DNA of 64,000 nucleotides from the NCBI GenBank assembly GCA_018668695.1, contig JABJBS010000308.1:1430-65429 (forward strand), written 5' to 3'. The position numbers and the translations under genes were made by a program. The notes beneath the pieces are model-generated. The model made no database searches, was not told the origin of the DNA, and was given only the letters and a program-made list of their open reading frames with translations. Shown here in pieces: positions 7,651 through 19,249 of the stretch. Each line of letters begins with the position of its first letter. Positions within the stretch are counted from its first letter, which is position 1. The DNA is from Deltaproteobacteria bacterium. GTDB taxonomy: Bacteria > Myxococcota > XYA12-FULL-58-9 > JABJBS01.

Positions 7651-7863
7651 CTCAGTCCTCTCAAGCACAACATCTAGAATGAGGGTGTAACACATGGGTC
7701 CGATACAAAAACAAGCCCCAAGAAAGGATTTAGGTTCTTTTGGTGGCGATCCAGAAGCCTAAGTTATTGAATTTTAATCGATGGTCGCTTGATTTACGCT
7801 GAATCGAGCGTTAGTACGACATTAAGATGTCCCCGCCATCCGGCCACCTGGAGTTACCAAAAC

Positions 7864-8940
7864 ATGGCAAGTAAGCGCGCAGTCCTAGAGACGCTGAAAG
7901 TTAAAGATCTGATCTTCGTTGCTGATAAGTTTGAAATTCAGCTGGAGAACCGACGCAAAAAAGACGACGTAGTTGCGTCTATCGCCAAGACTCGCAAAGT
8001 TGCTATTGGTGAGCTGCTGCAGGCGTTGCCGCTTGCCACTCTCAAAGCTTCTTGCGCCAGCCTGGACATTGAAGCCAAAGGGCGCAGCAAAGCTGGTTTT
8101 GTTGAAGCGTTAACAGGTCCTGCAAAGAAAAAAGCAGCGGCAAAGCCAAAGGCTGAAAAAGCGCCTGCGAAGAAAAAAGCAGCGACAAAGCCAAAGGCTG
8201 AAAAAGCACCGGCGAAGAAAAAAGCAGCGGCCAAGCCAAAAGCTGAAAAAGCACCGGCGAAGAAAAAAGCGGCAGCCAAGCCGAAGGCTGAAAAAGCACC
8301 GGCGAAGAAAAAAGCAGCAGCGAAGCCGAAGGCTGAAAAAGCACCGGCGAAGAAAAAGGCAGTAGCCAAGCCAAAAACTGAAAAAGTACCGGCGAAGAAA
8401 AAAGCAGTAGCGAAGCCAAAGGCGGAAAAAGCGCCGGCGAAGAAAAAAGCAGTAGCAAAACCAAAGGCCGAAAAAGCGCCGGTTGAAGAAAAAGCGGCAG
8501 CGGAGCCAAAGGCTGAAAAAGCACCCGTTACCGTTAAGAAGAAAAAACAACCGCTCATCAATAAGGCACCCATAGAAGCCCCTAAGAAGGAAGCTGATTC
8601 TGAGCCACGCCAGGCGGTTCTTGATAAAGTTGCCAGCATCAAGCCGGCCGAGACCTCACAGCCTGATTACAGTCAGATTAAAAAAGAATACGTTGGCCTT
8701 GAGATTCAAAAGGTTGATTGCCCTTCATGCGCTGCCGAGGTGAAACTTGCCAATTGCCAAGCTCACCAGTGTTCAAACCGCTTTGTTTTTCAACAACGAA
8801 AAATCTGCGCCAGCTGCTGGTACGAGAGAAGCTCGGTATCCATCGGTGAGTATTTAGACGAAGACAGAATCGATACCCGTTGTGCAGCTTGTTCCGCAGA
8901 GATCGATGTTGAGTCATTTGCCGGTCTCAAATCAGCTTAA
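7864..8940 (+). CDS. Histone H1-like Lys/Ala/Pro repeat protein with N-terminal HeH/SAP-like motifs and a C-terminal Cys-rich zinc-ribbon-like domain
   Basis: Start at ATG 7864 with GGAG upstream. It contains nine 15-aa APAKKKAAAKPKAEK repeats. The N-terminus has LETLKVKDLIFVADKFEI and LLQALPLATLKASCASLDIEAKGRSKAGFVEAL. The C-terminus has CPSC...C...C...CASC...CAAC. Confidence 0.75.
   Translation: MASKRAVLETLKVKDLIFVADKFEIQLENRRKKDDVVASIAKTRKVAIGELLQALPLATLKASCASLDIEAKGRSKAGFVEALTGPAKKKAAAKPKAEKAPAKKKAATKPKAEKAPAKKKAAAKPKAEKAPAKKKAAAKPKAEKAPAKKKAAAKPKAEKAPAKKKAVAKPKTEKVPAKKKAVAKPKAEKAPAKKKAVAKPKAEKAPVEEKAAAEPKAEKAPVTVKKKKQPLINKAPIEAPKKEADSEPRQAVLDKVASIKPAETSQPDYSQIKKEYVGLEIQKVDCPSCAAEVKLANCQAHQCSNRFVFQQRKICASCWYERSSVSIGEYLDEDRIDTRCAACSAEIDVESFAGLKSA
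8116..8547 (+). repeat. 45-bp tandem coding repeat array (9 full units plus a partial unit)
   Basis: The unit gcaccggcgaagaaaaaagcagcggccaagccaaaggctgaaaaa repeats head-to-tail from 8116 to 8520, with a degenerate tenth unit. Units differ mainly at synonymous sites and A/V/T positions. Confidence 0.95.
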
Positions 8941-8985: not shown

Positions 8986-11900
8986 TTACTGCAACGAGCC
9001 AGTCATTCGGTAATAACTCCCAGTACGGTCGAGAGACCCATTCGTTAAGCCCCATACCTCGCTTTGTGGCAAACCAGCCAAACCGCCAACATCAAATTCC
9101 GGCAACGGAATCGAACCTACTGCAGCGCTTAAAAGCTGAGGAACAACCAGCCTGAGAACCTCGGTAAAGAGGTCACTCATCGGTCCTTGGAAGGATGGCT
9201 CATCGATATCGACCACTTGCACCCAGATATCAGGGTCGTCGTCTAAAGAGACGATCAAGGAGTTGGTCGTAGGGTCAATATCTAAGAAACCACCAATGAT
9301 GGTTGACAGATAAAGTGAGACATTTATGTTTCCGAAGCCCTCGATATTCACCGCGGCATCAATCAGCACATCGCCGAGACCGATTTGAATTTCATTAGCA
9401 CCTTCGCCCGGCATCAGTACCGGAGGCGAGAGTGCGTCGAATGACAGGGATATATTGTCAAAAGCTCCCCCACCACTTGTTTGACCTCCGCCGCAGACAC
9501 AACACATTGTGCCTGAGGTAAAATCACCATCGTCATAATTTCCACACCAAGAAGGGGAAGCCGCATACTCCGCACAGCCATCACCGTAAGGGTCAGTGGC
9601 TCCATTGTCAGTATCGGCGCAAGTCGCTTCACTGCCATCGTCCAGGAGTGAGCTCAAATCCGAAATATTCAAACCGCCGCCATACCACATTCCCCAAAGC
9701 ACTTGGTTGATGAGATCATCTTTTAAGCCCACTCCAAATGCGTACGACGAGCTGCTAAATGCTGGGGTGCTACCGTTCTTACGAACCGAGCCTCTGCTAT
9801 CCCAAGGAATGGTCGCGCCCCGCGATGATGGATAAACCTGAGTATAAAGCCCCAAATCACCGTAGCCAGAGCCAGCTGGCCCGCTGAAACCGAGCATATC
9901 CAACGCAGAAGAAAGGTTCAGTGAGATGTTGACCGGCGCCGGTATATCGATTGCCGTAGCCACTTCAAAACCCGATAAGAAGTCTTGTAAAAGCGGTGCC
10001 ACTTGCTCGCGCACCGCACTGGAAAGCTCATCTTCAATTTGACTCTCAAAGATACCCACAATGGCATTCACAATGGGGTTCACCAGAAAATCGATGAAAT
10101 CCAGCGCTCCAAAATCCATGTCGATATAGAGGCCGCTGATATCTACGGCTAAGCAGCTGTTGCAAATCGATACGTTTGGAGAGGTTCCTGAAAGAGAAAT
10201 ATCAATGGAGCCCGCTATACTCACAGAGCTTGCTTCAACATCACCATAGATATTGAGCCCCGTCTCACCCAAGCATCCAGTATCCAAATGCCCATGAACC
10301 TTAAGCGGGAGGTTAAGATTATTCATCCCCATGCTCAGGGCGACTCCACCGTCTTCAGCCACAATATAATCGATAACAGGCGAGGTATAACTAAATATAC
10401 CGTTCTTGGTAATCTTATAGCCGGTTCTTTGATTCGTCTCTGTCCAAAAAACGCAGTTATAGCTCGTCGAATCAATATTCCCGTCGCCATTGCTATCTGG
10501 GTCGACCGCAAGCGTTCCTGGAATAGCGGCATTCAAATCAATATTTTGAACCACCGCCTGAGCTAGAGATGCTACGTCATCGATATCGCTGCGGTTACCA
10601 TCATCCATCACGGCTTGATTTAGCCTTGCGACCATCCCCTGGCTTACTCGAGCCGAAGAAACAGCGCCTGTAACAGCCGGGAAATATTGACCGCTTCTTG
10701 TAAAAGATTGAGCTACGACCGCATAGTTACCGCAGCTATCCTCAGCTGTGGCTGTGACCACGTTCAGCCCCCAGCGCGAGGACTGACTCACATCGATAGC
10801 CAGGTTAGTCTGTGTACCATCTGGCGCAAGCGATGTTCCATTCACTGTGGCCACCGTGAGCTCGCTCACTGAATCTACAATCGTTCCGGTCACGTTCACA
10901 TTGAGATCGGACGTTGAGCCAATCATGAGCATCTCAGCGCGCGTTGGGCTACTGAACACGACGGTTGGCGGAGTGGAATCTACGCGAATGGATGAGTAAC
11001 TTGGTTGAATTGTTGAATCCGGGTGCAATGGACCTGCTACTGAAACAACCGTGTCAAAATCGCCCTCGCTTGCCACTTCGAACACCCCAGGTGACGTTTC
11101 AGTCACAGCACCCGCAGGCGTAGACGTTACCTGGATATCGGCATCGACAACTTCATTGCCCCAAAAGTCATAAACAGAAGCGGTGAACGGGAAGCTTCTC
11201 CCCTGCCAATAACAATCCTGCTCAAGAAGGCTGGACGCCCACACATAAGGTAAACCTGGATGGACTGTTACCAAGGGCGGATTTTCATCTTCGGCATCGT
11301 AACCAATCACACCGCAAACAACATATAGGTAGCCCGCACCCGTGGCAGAGAACCCTGTAGTATTTTGAGAAACACCATAGCTCGCAGGCAAAGATCCATT
11401 GGCAGGCGTTACTTCAAAATAAGTATCGAAACCCGTAACGGGGTTGCCGAAAGCGTCTGTCATACTACAGCCAACATCGACAACTGACGTCGGAGTTGTA
11501 TCGCTGCTTGATAGTGTTGTTTCGGTGTAGGCCGGTGGACCCGCCCCTACAGTTATCGTTTCAGCGGTTGCATCAACCAAGGCATCCAGCGTGCACGCAA
11601 CGGTGTATGACCCCACGAAAGTAGCGATGAGGCTGAAACGCCCGCCTCCCACATCTGTGATTTCCACACCCTCGCTAACGTTTAGGCCCAGACCATCGGG
11701 TTGTAAAACAGGGTTACCGTAAGAATCGAAAGCATCACAAGCAACATACGCTCTCTCACCAGCAGAGGTTTGCGTCACCTCAGGAACAGTTTCAACTTGG
11801 GCTGCACCTGAGGGGGCAACAGTAAACCAAGCACCATCGCCATCGAGAACCACACCGTCGGCCGTTGCACATCGAGCCTGGTAGTAACCAGCGGAAGTTG

Positions 11901-12642
11901 GCGTTAAGGTTGCCCCGTTATCATTTACGGTCATATCGACGACGGCGGGAAAGACTTCCACCATGACCGGCACATCGGAGACGGTTTGGCCCGAGAGTGC
12001 AACCGAGCAAACAACATTCAAAGAGCCGCCAGCCACCAAGTTAGACGAGGTTAAAGCAGTGCTAATGGTATAGCGCTTGTCCACCGCAACACGCACCCCG
12101 CCTTGGGATGTGTTACCGGCAAGATCTGTGGCGACGACGCGTATCATCGGGAAGGTCATGCCTGCCCCCACGGAAGCCACGCTTACGGTACCGCTCCATG
12201 TCCCATCCTCATTGCTGGTAATCGTTCCGGCGGCAATATTTTCAGCTTCTAAAGTTACGCTTGCAGGATCAACACCGTCTGCATCCTCGATGGTCACCGA
12301 GACAGAGACGTCACCGTCCACCTGAGCATAAGCCTCAGGTGCTAAGAACGTAATCGTCGGTCCCGGGTTCACTGGTTCGGGCTCGATGTCAGGCTCTGGC
12401 TCTGGCTCGGGGTCTGGCTCGGGGTCTGGTTCAGGGTCTGGTTCAGGGTCCGGCTCGGGGTCTGGTTCGGGCTCCGGCTCGGGAGAGACGCAATCGCCTT
12501 CGACACAGTTTTCCCCCTCCGCGCATTCACTGGCATCTTCACAGTTTGTCGCAATTTGCCCCGGTGTGGTCTCACTTCCACAAGCACTCAGCGCCAAGAG
12601 GACCAGCAACCCTACCCAGTGATACAATTTGGATACTCTCAT
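8986..12642 (-). CDS. Giant lipoprotein: PE/PD linker, Ig-like domain array, C-terminal BPI/LBP-like (TULIP-like) module with a Cys-rich insert
   Basis: Lipobox LLALSAC, followed by CEDASECAEGENCVEGDC and a PEPD linker. The middle shows repeated beta-rich segments (VDSTPPTVVFSSP). From GMVARLNQ (aa ~669) the C-terminus is collinear with the recalled BPI/LBP sequence. It is a paralog of the upstream gene, and both end in (Y/I)RMTGSLQ. Confidence 0.7.
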   Translation of the reverse strand: MRVSKLYHWVGLLVLLALSACGSETTPGQIATNCEDASECAEGENCVEGDCVSPEPEPEPDPEPDPEPDPEPDPEPDPEPEPEPDIEPEPVNPGPTITFLAPEAYAQVDGDVSVSVTIEDADGVDPASVTLEAENIAAGTITSNEDGTWSGTVSVASVGAGMTFPMIRVVATDLAGNTSQGGVRVAVDKRYTISTALTSSNLVAGGSLNVVCSVALSGQTVSDVPVMVEVFPAVVDMTVNDNGATLTPTSAGYYQARCATADGVVLDGDGAWFTVAPSGAAQVETVPEVTQTSAGERAYVACDAFDSYGNPVLQPDGLGLNVSEGVEITDVGGGRFSLIATFVGSYTVACTLDALVDATAETITVGAGPPAYTETTLSSSDTTPTSVVDVGCSMTDAFGNPVTGFDTYFEVTPANGSLPASYGVSQNTTGFSATGAGYLYVVCGVIGYDAEDENPPLVTVHPGLPYVWASSLLEQDCYWQGRSFPFTASVYDFWGNEVVDADIQVTSTPAGAVTETSPGVFEVASEGDFDTVVSVAGPLHPDSTIQPSYSSIRVDSTPPTVVFSSPTRAEMLMIGSTSDLNVNVTGTIVDSVSELTVATVNGTSLAPDGTQTNLAIDVSQSSRWGLNVVTATAEDSCGNYAVVAQSFTRSGQYFPAVTGAVSSARVSQGMVARLNQAVMDDGNRSDIDDVASLAQAVVQNIDLNAAIPGTLAVDPDSNGDGNIDSTSYNCVFWTETNQRTGYKITKNGIFSYTSPVIDYIVAEDGGVALSMGMNNLNLPLKVHGHLDTGCLGETGLNIYGDVEASSVSIAGSIDISLSGTSPNVSICNSCLAVDISGLYIDMDFGALDFIDFLVNPIVNAIVGIFESQIEDELSSAVREQVAPLLQDFLSGFEVATAIDIPAPVNISLNLSSALDMLGFSGPAGSGYGDLGLYTQVYPSSRGATIPWDSRGSVRKNGSTPAFSSSSYAFGVGLKDDLINQVLWGMWYGGGLNISDLSSLLDDGSEATCADTDNGATDPYGDGCAEYAASPSWCGNYDDGDFTSGTMCCVCGGGQTSGGGAFDNISLSFDALSPPVLMPGEGANEIQIGLGDVLIDAAVNIEGFGNINVSLYLSTIIGGFLDIDPTTNSLIVSLDDDPDIWVQVVDIDEPSFQGPMSDLFTEVLRLVVPQLLSAAVGSIPLPEFDVGGLAGLPQSEVWGLTNGSLDRTGSYYRMTGSLQ
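12373..12484 (-). repeat. Low-complexity 6/12-nt periodic repeat encoding the (PE/PD)n linker
   Basis: The plus strand reads ggttcgggctc...ggctctggctctggctcggggtctggctcggggtctggttcagggtctgg... It encodes PEPEPEPDPEPDPEPDPEPDPEPDPEPEPEPDIEPEP. Confidence 0.9.
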
Positions 12643-15600
12643 TGCAGGCTCCCTGTCATCCGAATGTAATCGTTTTTACGGGCGATGGTCACATCACCAA
12701 TTGTCCAGCTGGCGTTGCTATCGAGTCCTGCCAATCCTCCTAAGTCAAACTCAGGAATCGGAAAGGACGAGAGAACGCTCTCCAGTAATTCAGGTATCAC
12801 CAGTGCCATAATACTGGACATCAACTGACTGATCTCTGCTTGGTAAGCAGACTGAGAAATCTCAACCACCTCAACCGCAATGGTGGGATCACCGTCGATG
12901 CTAATCTGAATGGCATGGTTGACCGGATCATAATCAAATGAAGCACCCATGACCGCCGATAGATAAAGGCGTACATCGATTTCCTGGGCCGCTGGTGTTT
13001 CCACTCCAAGTGCATCGGCTAGATTAAGGCTGGCCGTAAGCTCCATATCCCCTATGCCGATTTCAATATCGTTGCCGTTTCGCCCAGGCATCACAACGGG
13101 CGGCAACCCTGCCGACATTCCGAGTTCAACTCCATTGATGTTTGCAGTCGGGACCAGGCCTACAATATCAGGAATCTCAAAAGCGCCTCCGTACCAAATA
13201 GACCACATGATTTGATTCAACGTATTGTCAGATAAACCCACGCCAACCGGATAATTCGGACCAAAAGCAGGCGCCTCATTCGAACGGACAATGGCACCCA
13301 ATGAAGTTGCCGGAATCCCATCGCCTCTTTCCGATGGATAAACCTGGGTGTAAAGCCCAAGGGTCCCGTATCCTGCACCGGCCGGGCCAGAAAAATCTGC
13401 ACCACTCATCCCGCTATAGATGTTGAGTGTCATCCCAATCGGTTCGGGAATATCAAATCCGGTTCCCAAGCTTAGGCCACCGAGCACACTCCCAAGCAAG
13501 TCCGGTACGAGAGCCCGTATTTGAGCCCCGAGAAGCGCTTCGACCGGATCTTCCACTGCTGTCGCCAAATTAGTGAGTAGCTCGTTAATCATCTCATCCA
13601 TGAAACTCAGTGAGCCCCAATTGAAATCAAAAACGACATTGTTGAAATCGATAGCCAAGCACGTTTCACAAACCGACACTGTAGGAGCCGCTCCGTCAAA
13701 ACCAATCGAGCCCTCACCATCAGCACCAATGAAACCGATTCTTACTTCACCGGTAATCGTCTCGACGATTTGGCCACCACATCCCATATCCAGCGACGCA
13801 TGGATTTCAAGCGGCAAAACCAAGCTCTCCATTGAGAAGCCAAAACCCAGGGCATCTTCAACAGCCGTCAAGTGTTCTAATGTGGGATCACCATGCTGGA
13901 GGGCACCAATTTTCTTAACCCAGAAACCGGTCACCTCTTGTGTCACCGTCTCCCCAGAGCAGGTATAAGTGGCTGTTTGTAATTGGTCGCTGCCGTCATT
14001 CGCATTTTCAGGCGAAAAAACCAAGGTGCCGGGCAGTGCTGAATCCAGAGTAAAATCACCAAATATCGTCTGCACTAAAGTCGCTAAATCATCCACGTCC
14101 TGGCGATACTCATCGTCGATGGCCATTTGATTCAAGCGAACAATCATACCATCGAGCACGATGGCTTCTGAGTCAGCTTCTGTGGAGGCCGCTGCGTAAT
14201 TTGGACTTCGTAGAAAAGACTGCTGAGCAACCTTCTTGTTACCGCAGGCATCGGTTGCCGATGTTTCAAACACGCTCAAGCCCCACCGACTGGAGTGTTC
14301 AGCTTCGAAAGCTTCAGTTAATGACGTGCCCGAAACATCGAGCTTACGGCCATCAATTCGCACTTCCTCCAGCTTACTTAGGCTATCCGTGACCGTGCCA
14401 GTAATCGTGACCAATGTATCTTCTTCACTGCCTTCAACAAGCATAGCTCCCCGAACAGGAGAAGTTATCGCAACTTCCGGCGGGGTCGAGTCGACTCTGA
14501 TATTCGCGTAAAATGGCGAGATCAAAGCGAACGGGTCGAGATCTCCCTGTAAGCCCACAGTGATGTCGTAATCACCTTCTTCGTTAAAAATAAGTCCGCC
14601 ATCCAAGGTTCCAACCACACCTGAAGAAGGTGTAACGGAGACATCCAAAATAGGCTCGGCAATCAGGTTACCCCAGCGATCCAACACAGTGACCTCAATC
14701 GGTAACTCAAGCCCCTGCATGAAACAGTCGTAATCAAGTAAATCGACGTTCCAGCTAAAGGGTAAGCCCCCTTTGATTTTCACGATGGACGGACTCTCAT
14801 CACCAGCGAAATAACCGGGCACAGAACAAAAGACATAGTAGTCGCCCGTAATAACCGCGCTCACATTATGATCCGTTACCAAAGCTCCATTTTGAGAAGC
14901 CGTGGTTCCATCGGCCGCGAGCACAGAAACGACTGTGTCATAACCTTCCAAAAGGTTTCCGTAGGTGTCTGTGACCTCGCAGCTCACAGCAACCGGATCT
15001 GTAGGCAAGGCCTCGCCTGTAGAAAGCGTCGTGTGAGAGAACGCAGGCAAGCCTGCTCGGACGACAATGGTCTCAGGAGTTGGGTCAACGACCTCGCCAA
15101 ATCGGCAAGCAATGTCGTATTCCCCGACCAGCGTACCTCGCACGACGAAATCAAGGCCCAATGGAGGCTCAATAATCAACTCAACTGCGTGGTCGAGGTT
15201 AAGTAAATTCCCGTTTTCAAGAGCAGCAATATCAATAATCTCATTATCGTACTCATCATGAGCAACACAGCCCACTGCCCCAGGTACACCGGACACCAGA
15301 GTGTTATCCGAAACACTGGTCTCGATACGAACGATGTCCGCTGGTGTTACCGTGAGTGTTGCCCCCTGGCTATCGGCGACTTCACGCCCCGCGGTCATAC
15401 ATTGAACCGAAAACTCACCCGCTTGAGTTGGGGTAAACGAAGCCGACACGCCGCTTACCGTTATACTTTCCACCATGGGTGAAACGACCACCGCAATTGG
15501 GATGTCTGTAAGCTGCTCACGATCACGGCTGACGATACAAGTCACCTGAGCTGGTTCGCCCGCGTGAATGGTTGCATCAGCGAGGAAGGTCTCCACCACA

Positions 15601-15734
15601 ACACCTTCAAGGTTCACCACCTCGGTGCCGGTGGGTTCATCACCAGTCGTGTCGGAACCAGGGGTTACCCGATTCGTTCCACAGCCGACCAATGAGACAA
15701 CAATCGTTACGACGAGCGAGAATCGTAAAAACAT
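12639..15734 (-). CDS. Giant lipoprotein paralog: Ig-like domain array plus C-terminal BPI/LBP-like (TULIP-like) module
   Basis: Lipobox VSLVGC. It has the same domain order as the downstream gene (VDSTPPEVAITSP, SRWGLSVFETSATDACGN, GMIVRLNQ..., ...YIRMTGSLQ). Its TGA overlaps the downstream ATG (ATGA at 12639-12642). Confidence 0.7.
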   Translation of the reverse strand: MFLRFSLVVTIVVSLVGCGTNRVTPGSDTTGDEPTGTEVVNLEGVVVETFLADATIHAGEPAQVTCIVSRDREQLTDIPIAVVVSPMVESITVSGVSASFTPTQAGEFSVQCMTAGREVADSQGATLTVTPADIVRIETSVSDNTLVSGVPGAVGCVAHDEYDNEIIDIAALENGNLLNLDHAVELIIEPPLGLDFVVRGTLVGEYDIACRFGEVVDPTPETIVVRAGLPAFSHTTLSTGEALPTDPVAVSCEVTDTYGNLLEGYDTVVSVLAADGTTASQNGALVTDHNVSAVITGDYYVFCSVPGYFAGDESPSIVKIKGGLPFSWNVDLLDYDCFMQGLELPIEVTVLDRWGNLIAEPILDVSVTPSSGVVGTLDGGLIFNEEGDYDITVGLQGDLDPFALISPFYANIRVDSTPPEVAITSPVRGAMLVEGSEEDTLVTITGTVTDSLSKLEEVRIDGRKLDVSGTSLTEAFEAEHSSRWGLSVFETSATDACGNKKVAQQSFLRSPNYAAASTEADSEAIVLDGMIVRLNQMAIDDEYRQDVDDLATLVQTIFGDFTLDSALPGTLVFSPENANDGSDQLQTATYTCSGETVTQEVTGFWVKKIGALQHGDPTLEHLTAVEDALGFGFSMESLVLPLEIHASLDMGCGGQIVETITGEVRIGFIGADGEGSIGFDGAAPTVSVCETCLAIDFNNVVFDFNWGSLSFMDEMINELLTNLATAVEDPVEALLGAQIRALVPDLLGSVLGGLSLGTGFDIPEPIGMTLNIYSGMSGADFSGPAGAGYGTLGLYTQVYPSERGDGIPATSLGAIVRSNEAPAFGPNYPVGVGLSDNTLNQIMWSIWYGGAFEIPDIVGLVPTANINGVELGMSAGLPPVVMPGRNGNDIEIGIGDMELTASLNLADALGVETPAAQEIDVRLYLSAVMGASFDYDPVNHAIQISIDGDPTIAVEVVEISQSAYQAEISQLMSSIMALVIPELLESVLSSFPIPEFDLGGLAGLDSNASWTIGDVTIARKNDYIRMTGSLQ

Positions 15735-15920
15735 CGAACAATCTCCAATTCGAGTACGCAGGTAAATACTCTATCGCTCCATGGCGGTGCTCGCACCCGG
15801 AAATAGCGAGAAATCATAGATTTTTTGAGCGGTGTACCGACTTCTTCCTAGATTTCTCTGACACGTGATCCCTCACCGGGGCTCAAAGCCACTTTGGTTT
15901 AGCAGGTGGCTACTAAGGCC

Positions 15921-15961
15921 AAAAAAAAGCCGGCCCAAGACGATTAAGGTCTCGGGCCGGC
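15921..15961 (-). terminator. Rho-independent terminator downstream of the acyl-CoA synthetase gene
   Basis: The 13-bp stem pairs gccggcccaagac (15929-15941) with gtctcgggccggc (15949-15961), with one mismatch and a 7-nt loop. An A8 run on the plus strand (15921-15928) gives a U8 tail on the minus-strand transcript. The structure sits 25 nt after the stop codon. Confidence 0.85.
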
Positions 15962-15985
15962 TATCATTCTGTTTCTACGAGACAA

Positions 15986-17764
15986 TCAGTCCACGTACAT
16001 TGCCTCAATTTCACTGGCAAAGCTCTCATTTACGGCGTTGCGCTTTACTTTGAGAGTTGGGGTGAGTTCACCCTCTTCGATACTCAAAGGTCGCTTAAGA
16101 ACCGTGAACTTACGCACATGCTCAACCCTGGCGAACTTCTCATTGGTCTTGTCGACACCTGCCTGCAGGTGACTGCGCAACTGAGAGTTCTCGAGGGCAC
16201 CATCTACCGGCACACCGTTGTCTGCACACCATTTATCAAGCGCATCGGGATCGATGCTCAGAAGAGCACTGATAAACTTCCGGCGATCGCCAATTAGAAC
16301 GGCTTCGCCAACAACATCAATATTCTTCAACGAAGACTCAATGTTCTTAGGCGTAATGTTCTTACCACCGGCAGTGATAATGATGTCTTTCTTACGACCG
16401 GTAATGTTGAGGTAGCCGTCGGCATCGAAAGCACCGAGGTCACCCGAGTGCAACCAGCCATCAATGAGCGTAGCCGCTGTATTATCATCGTCCTTGTAGT
16501 AGCCCGCAAAAACATTGGGGCCCTTCAAACAGATTTCTCCATCTTCAGCGATGCGTACTTCAGCGCCCGGTAAAACTGGGCCAACTGTGCCATAACGTGT
16601 CCGTCCTGGAACATTAAAGCTCGTGGGTCCGGTACCTTCTGACTGTCCGTAGACCTCATGCACAATAATGTCGAGACTCGCGAAAAACTCTAAAATTTCC
16701 TGTGAAATTGGAGCAGCACCGCTGACACAAACGCGGGCTCTTCCAAGTCCCAAAGCAGGCTTAAGCTTCGAAAAAATAATTTTCTGAGCAAGAGCGTACT
16801 GGAGGCCTAAAACACCACTGGGCGTTCGTCCTGCGTTGCGTTCGGTATTAGCGCGCGTGGCCACACCACGTGCCCAAGTTACAAGCTTTGCTTTTGTTCC
16901 TGTTGCCAATTCAAGCTTACCAGTTACACCTGCGTGAAACTTCTCCCAGATTCTCGGTACACCGAAAAACACGGTAGGCTGAACTTCTTTTACGTTTTCG
17001 GGAACGGCCTCGATCGACTCAGCAAAATAAACTGAGGCACCCGCCGTAATCGGTCCGTGAATCGAGAACATCTGCTCTGCAATATGTGAGAGCGGCAGAT
17101 AACTGAGGCTACAGTCGTGCGCGCGCAGGGAAACAAGCCCTTGAGCGATTTGAGACGTCCACGCTAGGTTTTTATGCGTCAGCATCACGCCTTTTGGCGG
17201 ACCCGTCGTGCCGGACGTGTAAATAAGCGTAGCCGTTTTGTCTTCTTCAAGTTTCGCAATATGAAGATCGACTTCTTCGTCTTTCGTGCCTTCTGCACGT
17301 GCCATGAACTCGTCCCAGCTCATCACCAACTCATCGTCGATTGCTGGCGCGTCCTTCATCATCACCACGTGCTTTAACTTAGGTAAATTCGCACGTTCCG
17401 ACTTAACCTTTTCCCACTGACCTTCGTCTTCAAGCAGAACAACCGGCGCTTCGGCATGATGGAGGATATACTGAACTTCCTCTGCAGAGCAGGTGGTATA
17501 AATACCCGCTGGAGCACCGCCCACCGCCATGTTTGCGATATCCATGATGACCCACTCAGGACGGTTGAATCCCAAAATGCAAACGGTCTCTCCGTCACCT
17601 ATTCCAAGCGATAGAAGCGCTCGTGTCGCGGTTCGTACCTCACCAACATAATCGCGCCAGGTTGTTGGGCGCCAACTCCCACTTTGGCGAATGTAATAAG
17701 CAGGAGAGTCAGGGCGAATTCGACCCTGCTCCATGAATCGTGCGGGAATTGTATCTACAGGCAT
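15986..17764 (-). CDS. Long-chain-fatty-acid--CoA ligase (AMP-forming acyl-CoA synthetase)
   Basis: AMP-binding motif LIYTSGTTGPPKGVMLTHKN, plus VYGQSEGTGP, GWLHSGDLGAFDADGYLNITGRKKDII and GGKNITP. The 592-aa length is typical of the FadD/FAA1 type. Confidence 0.85.
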   Translation of the reverse strand: MPVDTIPARFMEQGRIRPDSPAYYIRQSGSWRPTTWRDYVGEVRTATRALLSLGIGDGETVCILGFNRPEWVIMDIANMAVGGAPAGIYTTCSAEEVQYILHHAEAPVVLLEDEGQWEKVKSERANLPKLKHVVMMKDAPAIDDELVMSWDEFMARAEGTKDEEVDLHIAKLEEDKTATLIYTSGTTGPPKGVMLTHKNLAWTSQIAQGLVSLRAHDCSLSYLPLSHIAEQMFSIHGPITAGASVYFAESIEAVPENVKEVQPTVFFGVPRIWEKFHAGVTGKLELATGTKAKLVTWARGVATRANTERNAGRTPSGVLGLQYALAQKIIFSKLKPALGLGRARVCVSGAAPISQEILEFFASLDIIVHEVYGQSEGTGPTSFNVPGRTRYGTVGPVLPGAEVRIAEDGEICLKGPNVFAGYYKDDDNTAATLIDGWLHSGDLGAFDADGYLNITGRKKDIIITAGGKNITPKNIESSLKNIDVVGEAVLIGDRRKFISALLSIDPDALDKWCADNGVPVDGALENSQLRSHLQAGVDKTNEKFARVEHVRKFTVLKRPLSIEEGELTPTLKVKRNAVNESFASEIEAMYVD

Positions 17765-18128
17765 ATCAGCAGTAACCTCACTTAATTAAAAACGTCTTGG
17801 AACCCAGGTTTTATCCTCAATGAAACACCCGATTCAAGAAGAGCCTATTGTATTTGGTCTTACCAAAGCCAAAGAACTCGTCTCGCGCCGGCTTTCCTCA
17901 ACAAATAACTCCATATTTCCAAAACCTTGAAAACAATTGATGTTTTTATCATTTCTCAAGAAAATGACACGCTCCGTCATAGCACGGGAGGATTTCATTC
18001 CCAAATCACTGGGTTTCGAAATACGGATCCACGCGAAGTTCTGTCCCAAAAACCAGTAGAACTTTCAAAGCTACTGAAAATTATGGAAAAAACTTTACAG
18101 ACCCCCTCTGATCTACGACCCTTTAAGT

Positions 18129-19160
18129 ATGGCGGGCGAAGAACTGCAAGATGACGATTACGGAATCGACGAATCAATGGATAACCTTGATCCCGTTGAT
18201 GATTTAGACGATCTCGACGATCTCGATGACCTTGATGATCTGGACGACCTAGATAGTCTTGAGGACCTCTCTCCTCCCGGACAATCAGCGGACGACATCG
18301 AGGATATCGAAGATGAGGACCCAGAAGAGTCTGGGATTCTACTCAAAGGCCCCGAGGTTCATATCGGCGGCGACGATGAGTACGACGAAGAAGAAAGCCG
18401 AGCCGCACCCGAGCCACGACAACGCTCAAACGAAGAAGAAGACGCCCGAGCCCGAGCCAGGGCACGCGCTGAACGCAACCGGCTTAAAAAGCTTGCCATG
18501 CAAGAAATGGGTGCACCCAAAGAGCCCAGAAGCAGGCAAAGGCGCCAAAAGCCCGAGAGACGACAAGCACAAGCTCCAGCGCGAGAGGCGGCGCCACCCG
18601 GTCCCAAACCCAAACGTGACTACATCAATCAACAAGATTGGCAGAATGGAAAAAATGGCCGCAACCGCGGACCCATGACTGCCAAGACATTTTTGATTGG
18701 TTTTGGAGTCTCTGTCCTCGGAGTGGGGATCTTGGCCATGTTGGTCTTGGTGACCTATGATATTTATGACAAACGCTTTGGAACGGCAGAAAGTCCCGAA
18801 GAAGTGGCCGTCGAAGACTCCAAGAAGAGTAAACTGAGGGTCCCGAAAGGTCTGACAGATCACTTTCAGGGTAAAACACCTGAAGAAGAGGAAGTTCGTG
18901 ATCCTCTGGTTCCGCCTAGCCAACAAGAAGAGGAAATGTTTGAGAAAAGCGCCATTTCCAATCTGTCAGATGACGGCCTTAGAGCGATTTTCGGGCAACT
19001 TGACCTCATGAAGCGCGAAATCAAGCAAGCACAGAAGCGCCAAGAACGTATTGAGGGAGCAGTCGAACAAATCGAGAACATGCTCGATAGTGTCAACGAA
19101 GGGCGCAGTCGTAATAAAAAGCGTAAGGGTAAGAAAAAAGCCTCTAGAAACAGGCGCTGA
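18129..19160 (+). CDS. Hypothetical single-pass membrane protein with acidic (DDL)n and basic disordered N-terminus and a coiled-coil, basic C-terminus
   Basis: DDLDDLDDLDDLDDLDDLDSLEDL is followed by an Arg/Gln-rich stretch, the TM helix FLIGFGVSVLGVGILAMLVLV, and the C-terminal tail KKRKGKKKASRNRR. I recognise no family. Confidence 0.55.
   Translation: MAGEELQDDDYGIDESMDNLDPVDDLDDLDDLDDLDDLDDLDSLEDLSPPGQSADDIEDIEDEDPEESGILLKGPEVHIGGDDEYDEEESRAAPEPRQRSNEEEDARARARARAERNRLKKLAMQEMGAPKEPRSRQRRQKPERRQAQAPAREAAPPGPKPKRDYINQQDWQNGKNGRNRGPMTAKTFLIGFGVSVLGVGILAMLVLVTYDIYDKRFGTAESPEEVAVEDSKKSKLRVPKGLTDHFQGKTPEEEEVRDPLVPPSQQEEEMFEKSAISNLSDDGLRAIFGQLDLMKREIKQAQKRQERIEGAVEQIENMLDSVNEGRSRNKKRKGKKKASRNRR
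18198..18269 (+). repeat. 9-nt periodic coding repeat (Asp-Asp-Leu)x8
   Basis: gat gat tta gac gat ctc gac gat ctc gat gac ctt gat gat ctg gac gac cta gat agt ctt gag gac ctc. Leu codons differ between units (tta, ctc, ctt, ctg, cta). Confidence 0.9.
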
Positions 19161-19249
19161 TTCCAACCTTGGCCTGTCTGGACAATGCGTTAACCACTGG
19201 GTCAAGTCTTACGTAATATCGTCGATGCTGCTTTACGAAGAGACGGCTC

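Follow-up and report, generated by a model that had tools for sequence, protein, structure and literature searches.

Gene pair and overall architecture

The window analysed here (the whole stretch of 64,000 nucleotides from contig JABJBS010000308.1 of a Deltaproteobacteria bacterium, assembly GCA_018668695.1; all coordinates below are positions within it) carries on its reverse strand two adjacent genes, the upstream P2 and the downstream P1. By the signal-peptide criterion their products are predicted bacterial lipoproteins, and for their C-terminal parts of about 500 amino acids (aa) structure prediction supports the BPI/LBP/CETP-like double-TULIP fold. The genes and their junction are located as follows.

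12639..15734, reverse strand: P2 gene, an open reading frame (ORF) for a predicted lipoprotein of 1031 aa consisting of signal peptide, tether, five beta-sandwiches and double-TULIP module
8986..12642, reverse strand: P1 gene, an ORF for a predicted lipoprotein of 1218 aa
12639..12642, reverse strand: ATGA overlap of the P2 stop and the P1 start (direct reading: CTG CAA TGA / ATG AGA GTA)

Both ORFs lie exactly where a preliminary description of this DNA, made from its letters alone, had placed them, and the two further claims made there about the gene pair are borne out: the ATGA overlap at 12639-12642 is read directly in the sequence, and the paralogy of the two proteins is evident from 38% identity across 816 aa (40% across the last 166 aa). 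The sole large difference between their C-terminal parts is an insert of ~55 residues in P1. A Shine-Dalgarno sequence, GGGAG, is located at the junction 8 nt upstream of P1, while P2 has its own, GGAG, 9 nt 5' of its ATG. The coupled pair is kept, with an identical 4-nt overlap, in two related loci, L015/L016 (1030 + 1160 aa) and L017 (1024 + 1148 aa); the orthologs of P2 in L015 and L017 share with it 67% and 43% identity, respectively, and those of P1 (L015_g2 and L017_g2) likewise 67% and 43%; taken as a pair, the genes are conserved at 67% and 43-45%. Since each of the window proteins is nearer to its own ortholog than to its pair partner, the duplication is old and maintained, and therefore joint working of the two proteins is suggested, as it is by the conservation of their coupling. 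No further copies of the module were found in the rest of the window, and the Rfam and tRNA scans gave no matches.

Predicted fold of the C-terminal module

The module was delimited with a family hidden Markov model (HMM) and subdivided according to the structural models:

14153..12642, reverse strand: P2 module, aa 528-1031, bounded by the family HMM
13449..14153, reverse strand: P2 N-lobe, aa 528-762, with a strand, helix A, a long twisted sheet and the 40-residue helix B in the models
13248..13448, reverse strand: P2 central sheet and inter-lobe linker, aa 763-829 (model strands 228-273, low-confidence loop 283-291)
12642..13247, reverse strand: P2 C-lobe, aa 830-1031, with a strand, helix A' (836-848), a sheet, helix B' (962-988) and terminal strands
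8989..10641, reverse strand: P1 double-TULIP module, aa 668-1218, placed by the family HMM and split by a Cys-rich insert

These boundaries are the same as those given for both modules in the preliminary description. In P1, positions 1-333 and 332-496 of the family HMM flank the insert (E 3e-215).

The AlphaFold2 model of the P2 module, built from an 8-sequence alignment, had a mean predicted local distance difference test score (pLDDT) of 82.1 and a predicted template modelling score (pTM) of 0.75. In this model a strand, a short helix, a long sheet and a long helix occur twice round a central sheet. Full-length P2, modelled from a different, 55-sequence alignment, reached a pLDDT of 87.8, with a double-TULIP at residues 526-1031. 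Foldseek searches of the PDB with the module model retrieved BPI as the top match (E 2.9e-18, template modelling score (TM) 0.53/0.57), followed by LBP (E 1.7e-16) and CETP (E 2.4e-16, TM 0.49/0.51), then by the clostridial OrfX3, P47 and OrfX2, and then by single TULIPs, namely SPLUNC1, JHBP, Takeout, Der f 7, YceB and the SMP domain of TMEM24. With the full-length model the ranking was identical; over the two models BPI, LBP and CETP were matched at E 1e-15 to 3e-18 and TM up to 0.58. Among PDB entries, the family is closer to eukaryotic BPI/CETP than are P47/OrfX of clostridia. The BPI-type two-lobed fold, which had been proposed from the likeness to human BPI and LBP, is thus what both AlphaFold2 models display, and BPI, LBP and CETP are their best matches in the PDB; in the modelling and Foldseek comparison suggested as a check, TULIP proteins occupied the whole top of the list for the module, and the refuting outcome named in the preliminary description did not occur. 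The sequences of helix B are amphipathic, as judged by eye only.

The N-lobe of P2 holds a conserved cysteine pair, C65 and C125, and an acidic motif in helix A. The latter, Q9-x3-D13-D14-x7-D22 (LNQxxxDDxDRxDxDD; P2 module positions 9-22, window ~14088-14129, reverse strand), is near-invariant in the family and looks like a possible divalent-cation site.

Sequence similarity to BPI and LBP

Single-sequence searches (Pfam and NCBIfam with both proteins, phmmer with the P1 module against the PDB) found no significant relevant family, so profile searches were needed. NCBIfam gave nothing for P2 and, for P1, only compositional matches in the acidic/Pro-rich N-terminal region. In the Pfam search helix B of P1 matched PF01273 (LBP_BPI_CETP) at 12.1 bits (E 0.16; the gathering threshold is 28.8 bits), P2 did not match this family, and PF02886 (LBP_BPI_CETP_C) was found neither in P1 and P2 at E<=10 nor among the matches listed for 40 family members at E<=1. 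Hence the Pfam search proposed in the preliminary description yielded for the N-terminal family a sub-threshold signal in one of the two proteins, and for the C-terminal family none.

Profiles made from 8 or 40 module sequences were compared with 177,635 distinct PDB sequences. The 8-sequence profile produced three matches only, two to human BPI (E 0.015) and one to mouse LBP (E 0.17), all aligned on the CxxC strand and the long helix following it. With the 40-sequence profile the values improved to E 0.0013 for BPI and 0.059 for LBP, beside one chance-level match (E 2); the BPI match spans only residues 77-200 of that protein. A second HMMER segment, insignificant at -1.9 bits, aligns the two C-termini. 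When the members were scanned one by one against Pfam, 5 of 40 matched PF01273 (best E 4e-05) and one matched JHBP, also a TULIP family; besides these, no non-Ig family recurred. In a scan of 55 members at E<=0.1, about two-thirds of them long or mid-length forms, PF01273 was not among the top 25 families. The per-member PF01273 signal is a minority signal, seen in short forms.

Judged from these alignments, the collinearity of the module with BPI and LBP appears to be beyond chance. The five blocks of similarity to these proteins that had been pointed out initially fared differently. The second and the third, which comprise the CxxC strand and helix B, are aligned in the profile matches as proposed; for the fifth, at the C-terminus, HMMER aligns the same regions about 14 residues off the register given, in the segment of -1.9 bits; the first and the fourth fit, at the level of secondary structure elements, the strand and helix A that open each lobe in the models. 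Cys132/Cys135 of BPI are aligned with a CxxC in both P1 and P2, a feature present in ~16% of the members. The Cys135-Cys175 disulfide of BPI is not conserved, there being no cysteine in helix B of P1 or P2; the family has a cysteine pair of its own, C65 (89%) and C124/125 (84%). Its most conserved motifs, GVGLxDDxxNQxxWxxWxGG and LPPVxMPG...GxGD, lie in the C-lobe.

BPI and LBP recognise lipid A via a cationic N-terminal tip. A cationic N-lobe of this kind is present neither in P1 or P2 nor in the family median: the net charge is -31 for the N-lobe of P2 (isoelectric point 4.1), -21 for its C-lobe and -25 for the N-lobe of P1, and the family medians are -17 for the N-lobe and -15 for the C-lobe, against +12 for the aligned BPI segment (77-200). 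Because the module is so strongly acidic, binding of lipid A by BPI/LBP-style electrostatics is unlikely, and the capture of lipopolysaccharide (LPS), proposed in the preliminary description, is the weakest part of that finding.

Predicted membrane anchors, stalks and the Cys-rich insert

The remaining features of the two proteins, in the order from the N-terminus, are:

15681..15734, reverse strand: P2 signal peptide, aa 1-18, lipobox LVGC (Cys18), MFLRFSLVVTIVVSLVGC followed by GTN
14205..15602, reverse strand: P2 stalk, aa ~45-510, five beta-sandwich (Ig-like) domains according to the model, Pfam and Foldseek
12580..12642, reverse strand: P1 signal peptide, aa 1-21, lipobox LSAC (Cys21), MRVSKLYHWVGLLVLLALSAC followed by GSE
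12367..12579, reverse strand: P1 four-Cys segment (aa 34-51) and (PE/PD)n spacer (aa 53-91), read from the sequence
10693..12360, reverse strand: P1 stalk, aa ~95-650, about six beta-sandwich domains (Big_7 match at aa 95-161)
9484..9621, reverse strand: P1 46-aa six-Cys module, aa 1008-1053, after helix A' of the C-lobe, absent from P2

The lipobox noticed earlier at the start of each protein is in both cases preceded by typical n- and h-regions and matches the pattern [LVI][ASTVI][GAS]C; the residue at position +2 after the predicted lipidated cysteine is Gly, not Asp, in P1 and P2. The (PE/PD)n spacer of P1, ~40 residues long and placed ahead of the first Ig domain, shows compositional matches to the PARP repeat and to the proline-rich regions of TonB and SslE. 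The P1 orthologs in L015 and L017 likewise open with a Cys-containing segment.

The array of Ig-like segments, also described initially, is confirmed by weak Pfam matches and by five beta-sandwiches in the full-length model of P2. In this model residues 1-39 are disordered, and the stalk is all-beta with pLDDT above 90. Its last beta-sandwich (aa ~420-510), to which Big_7 and Glucodextran_B are weakly matched at aa 419-502, is the domain that the whole family carries fused to the TULIP module, and the linker that joins it to the TULIP N-lobe has a pLDDT of ~95 in the model. Foldseek relates the P2 stalk to FdeC, invasin, InvD and the Ig arrays of S-layer proteins; relatives of P1 and P2 have Invasin_D3, Big_1 and Big_7 matches in the stalk (Pfam). 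In P1, residues 193-668 align collinearly with the five domains of the P2 stalk, and together with the Big_7 match this suggests about six domains for the stalk of P1.

The six-Cys module, with the pattern C-x-DTDNGATDPYGD-x-C...WCG-x-YDD-x-DF...MCC-x-CGGG, was not found in P2 or in the 67% ortholog of P1, and a Pfam search with it gave no match. It occurs in one to seven tandem copies, at 50-75% identity, in unrelated marine proteins, including a subtilase, cargo of the type IX secretion system (T9SS) and a dockerin protein. The many short homolog-search matches of 50-75% identity were accordingly rejected as relatives of the TULIP module, as only the Cys-rich insert was aligned in them.

Family composition and distribution

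When 1.84 billion representatives (clusters at 50% identity) were searched exhaustively with the HMM, at least 1,648 of them reached E<=1e-3, and 241 reached E<=1e-30. In nearly all of the best 150 matches the module is located at the extreme C-terminus, and among these 150 most of the complete members have a lipoprotein signal with an h-region ending in [AGS]C. In all of them one beta-sandwich with the motif SRWGL...QSxLRSP directly precedes the module. Three length classes can be distinguished, ~570-660 aa (with one beta-sandwich), ~850 aa and 1020-1260 aa, the long forms adding an invasin-like stalk of 5-6 domains. The minimal form of the family is, then, a lipobox, one beta-sandwich and a double-TULIP.

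Neither Pfam nor NCBIfam has a model covering the module, and no member retrieved with the 40-sequence alignment and looked up in its cluster bears a name other than "hypothetical protein". The family, which has not been described, is distinct in sequence, with no match to DUF4403, DUF2785 or DUF1439. Genomic relatives come from marine metagenome-assembled genomes (MAGs), at 84% identity under the label Bdellovibrionales, at 45% under Myxococcota, and also under Myxococcales and Deltaproteobacteria; the locus search, made with a 3-sequence alignment, returned only 7 loci, which makes for a thin phyletic profile. Lipoprotein signals that look like those of Bacteroidota occur in some of the distant short forms, by the appearance of the signal only. 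A third paralog is present in L017, a relative at 45% identity, after the conserved pair (15653-19168; 1171 aa, 38% identical to P1); its listed N-terminus, VLRVETSG..., lacks a lipoprotein signal and opens with PETPDTPE/PEPEPE repeats.

Comparison with known TULIP proteins

To our knowledge, bacterial TULIPs are few in the literature, and structures have been solved or reported only for YceB, P47/OrfX and TipA. The preliminary description took BPI-type modules to be essentially eukaryotic and their anchored, extended versions in a bacterium to be unusual. This premise is outdated, because DUF4403, P47/OrfX and TipA are bacterial. TULIPs have been accepted in bacteria since YceB was recognised as one in 2017 (PMC5507252), a full-length pseudo-dimeric BPI-like TULIP, borne mostly by lipoproteins, was predicted for DUF4403 in 2019 (Levine; PMC6791001), and bacterial P47/OrfX structures are available (PDB 5wix, 6ekt, 8bgm, 8fbf). 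TipA of Bdellovibrio bacteriovorus (Bd2538, with TipB as Bd2539) is a crystallographically defined BPI-like double-TULIP, and the preprint on it (2025-26) noted double-TULIPs fused to beta-rich domains in AFDB (10.1101/2025.09.09.675085). The present family is therefore an uncharacterised variant of a known bacterial kind of double-TULIP and not the first of them; since such bacterial proteins have already gained acceptance, current views stay as they are.

With BPI, LBP, CETP and PLTP (PF01273 + PF02886; PDB 1bp1, 4m4d, 2obd) the module shares its size of ~500 aa, the two-lobed pseudo-dimeric form, extracytoplasmic location as predicted, and the order of the secondary structure elements: strand, helix A, sheet, long helix B, central sheet, and then a repeat of the series. 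It differs from BPI in a sequence identity of only 10-12%, in scores below the Pfam cut-offs, in the lack of the helix-B cysteine and in being acidic where BPI is cationic. Besides being bacterial, P1 and P2 have a predicted lipid anchor and beta-sandwiches N-terminal to the module, whereas BPI is secreted alone.

As for DUF4403 (PF14356), it is likewise a bacterial full double-TULIP, found mostly in lipoproteins with a residue other than Asp at +2 and linked weakly in sequence to the N-terminal domain of BPI. However, DUF4403 was matched neither by P1 and P2 at E<=10 nor by 40 members at E<=1, and it was missing from the 25 top families of 55 members at E<=0.1; moreover, DUF4403 proteins have a linker of 20-25 aa and no fused domains, while the present family always has a fused beta-sandwich.

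The TipA/TipB system is similar in combining a BPI-like double-TULIP with a beta-sandwich partner in a two-gene operon, and its source lineage is related, being of the delta-proteobacterial type with some predatory members. TipB is a separate beta-sandwich that clamps and opens TipA, which in turn binds and destabilises membranes (10.1101/2025.09.09.675085). In the present family the beta-sandwich is fused N-terminally, and the gene sharing the operon encodes another double-TULIP paralog, not an adapter. According to its description, TipA is a secreted non-lipoprotein of ~570 aa assigned to DUF2785, unlike P1 and P2 with their lipoboxes; Pfam found no DUF2785 match in P1, P2 and 40 members.

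P47 and OrfX1-3 are also bacterial multi-TULIPs encoded by clustered paralogs, and Foldseek detects them with E 1e-10 to 2e-5, but the match (TM 0.2-0.35) is much weaker than that to BPI/CETP, and these proteins belong to Gram-positive toxin gene clusters and are neither lipoproteins nor stalked. Finally, YceB/DUF1439 (PDB 3l6i) is an outer-membrane TULIP lipoprotein, but a single TULIP of ~170 aa matched with a Foldseek E of only 0.015.

What appears to be new in the family is the obligatory fused beta-sandwich, the optional long stalks, the conserved pair of paralogs and the acidic surface, acidity being taken from the sequence charge. A large unnamed lipoprotein family is hereby defined whose similarity to BPI/LBP/CETP is the strongest detectable among bacterial TULIPs in the PDB copy searched.

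Proposed function

The conserved pair of lipoproteins is, on balance, probably a tethered, stalked double-TULIP device for the binding or transfer of lipids. Its action may be envisaged as follows. The N-terminal lipid anchor would fix P2 and P1 to a membrane, and the stalk of invasin/Big-type beta-sandwiches, five in P2 and about six plus the Pro-Glu/Asp spacer in P1, would set the working distance. The double-TULIP would form two barrel lobes, each round a long helix, joined by the central sheet; this tube would take amphipathic or neutral acyl-chain lipids inside from a distant membrane or particle and hold them or pass them on. With ~4 nm for each of the five to six Ig domains, and a head about as long as BPI (~13 nm), the target could lie ~20-35 nm away from the membrane of the anchor, on the other side of the periplasm or outside the cell. 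Correspondingly, the proteins might either be placed in the outer membrane facing the periplasm or be exposed at the surface, reaching particles or other cells. Lipid binding is most likely from the known function of the fold, every characterised TULIP binding lipids or other hydrophobic ligands (PMC5507252; 10.1101/2025.09.09.675085). By analogy with TipB, the beta-sandwich adjacent to the module invites comparison with a gating element. How an anchored bacterial TULIP reaches a second membrane might be explained by such a long Ig stalk and by the fusion to a beta-sandwich. Should both the lipid transfer and the co-operation of the pair be true, the family would represent lipid-handling machinery of a type new for marine and possibly predatory bacteria, and would bear on the debate whether the double-TULIP predates eukaryotes.

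Several observations weigh against such a device. Invasin-like stalks are typical of adhesins; both proteins remain under the Pfam LBP_BPI_CETP cut-off (12.1 versus 28.8 bits), and PF02886 was never matched; the neighbouring acyl-CoA synthetase gene (see below) is a separate transcription unit from P2/P1, and lipid-related neighbours are absent in the loci L017, L018, L020 and L005/6.

In a location-specific version of the same explanation the pair has a housekeeping role in the periplasm: fixed to the inner leaflet of the outer membrane, each protein would reach the inner membrane with its head and serve as a lipid shuttle or bridge. We regard this version as conceivable, if somewhat unlikely. 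DUF4403 and YceB are predicted to be outer-membrane lipoproteins facing the periplasm, with linkers too short to span it, and the stalk would solve this problem, raised by Levine (PMC6791001), as 5-6 Ig domains with a BPI-sized head could reach at least 20 nm; the short forms, though, cannot span the periplasm. The Gly at +2, with no Asp there, and the resemblance of the P1 spacer to the periplasm-spanning segment of TonB speak for this version. Against it stand the lack of established lipoprotein sorting rules for these lineages, the Cys-rich insert of P1, otherwise found in extracellular proteins, and the absence of Mla, Lpt and Pqi genes next to P2/P1.

It is unlikely that the proteins are adhesins or surface-layer components, with the Ig stalk as the functional core and a TULIP head binding a non-lipid ligand or a protein. 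Because many members are stalkless short forms with one beta-sandwich, the conserved core of the family is the TULIP module, and the most conserved motifs are inside it. We know of no characterised TULIP that serves as a non-lipid adhesin head. What speaks for this explanation is the likeness of the stalk to FdeC, invasin, InvD and S-layer proteins, with the Invasin_D3/Big_1 matches, and the acquisition by P1 of a Cys-rich module common to secreted marine proteins (subtilases, T9SS cargo, dockerin proteins).

The pair might also be a BPI-like antibacterial or predation weapon that binds LPS/lipid A of a neighbour or prey and permeabilises or strips its outer membrane, which we consider quite improbable. 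In structure and in sequence the module matches BPI and LBP best, but CETP, a neutral-lipid carrier, is about as similar in fold (TM 0.49-0.53), and the module is acidic, in opposition to the cationic BPI segment. The relatives' MAGs are labelled as Bdellovibrionales, Myxococcota and Myxococcales, groups including predators, and TipA of Bdellovibrio does bind and destabilise membranes (10.1101/2025.09.09.675085); the stalk could provide reach. A predatory lifestyle of the source organism, however, is a supposition.

That the likeness to BPI is no homology at all, but a convergent or mis-predicted fold with chance sequence similarity, is hardly credible: the 10-12% identity, profile E-values of only 1e-3 to 1e-2, the missed Pfam cut-off and the absent disulfide are in its favour, but two models from different alignments agree, the whole top of the Foldseek list consists of TULIP proteins, only BPI and LBP fall below E 1 among the PDB sequences with values that improve as the profile deepens, and independent members match PF01273 and JHBP.

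Returning to the tethered lipid-binding device, one may extend it to the proposal that in bacteria nothing is more closely related to BPI/LBP/CETP than this family, which is already a fused two-lobe module, with DUF4403 and P47/OrfX standing farther away, and that P2 and P1 form a hetero-oligomeric, stalk-mounted contact conduit for lipids. We find this extended proposal doubtful. If its first part were true, the double-TULIP would have originated in bacteria, among marine lineages of the Myxococcota/Bdellovibrionota type, or an ancient transfer between bacteria and eukaryotes would have taken place; if the second were, the pair would harvest lipids from other cells or particles by contact.

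Gene neighbourhood

Upstream of the P2/P1 operon the following features were identified:

15986..17764, reverse strand: acyl-CoA synthetase (AMP-binding) gene, PF00501 (E 3e-74) and PF23562
15928..15962, reverse strand: intrinsic terminator between the acyl-CoA synthetase gene and the P2/P1 operon, a 14-bp stem with 10 G-C pairs followed by T7

The acyl-CoA synthetase gene with a terminator of its own was thus correctly described from the letters. The link to P2 and P1 implied by its position stands in part: the gene is at the same position in L002 and L015/L016 but is absent in L017. Because of this absence and of the strong terminator between the genes, it was rejected as an operon partner and represents conserved synteny at best; the enzyme is a possible functional associate of P2/P1.

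Lipid-related neighbours recur around independent members, as seen by inspection of the loci, and this recurrence is suggestive. An MMPL transporter is the neighbour in L014, an MprF-like synthase in L011/12, and an acyl-CoA dehydrogenase and an AMP-binding enzyme in L019. In L008 (6934-9908; Deltaproteobacteria MAG GCA_016214955.1) the gene of a short-form member, P0012, has a 4-nt overlap with the upstream, translationally coupled gene of a PAE/Notum-type esterase (PF03283), which is itself preceded by an MFS transporter gene; this set may be an esterase-carrier-transporter operon.

Two other genes of the window, both on the forward strand, deserve mention. The gene at 18129-19160 sits between a HEAT-repeat gene and the acyl-CoA synthetase gene and encodes a protein of 343 aa, without a Pfam match, that has an acidic N-terminus of DDLDDLDDL repeats, a basic Arg/Lys-rich middle and one predicted transmembrane segment; in L015/L016 the matching position is occupied by another gene without a Pfam match and of comparable length (350 aa). 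The gene at 7789-8940, convergent with P1, encodes a 383-aa protein with ~14 tandem AKPKAEKAPAKKKA(A/V) repeats followed by a Cys-rich C-terminus; the repeats are histone-H1-like, rich in lysine and alanine, and spawn long spurious ORFs on the opposite strand.

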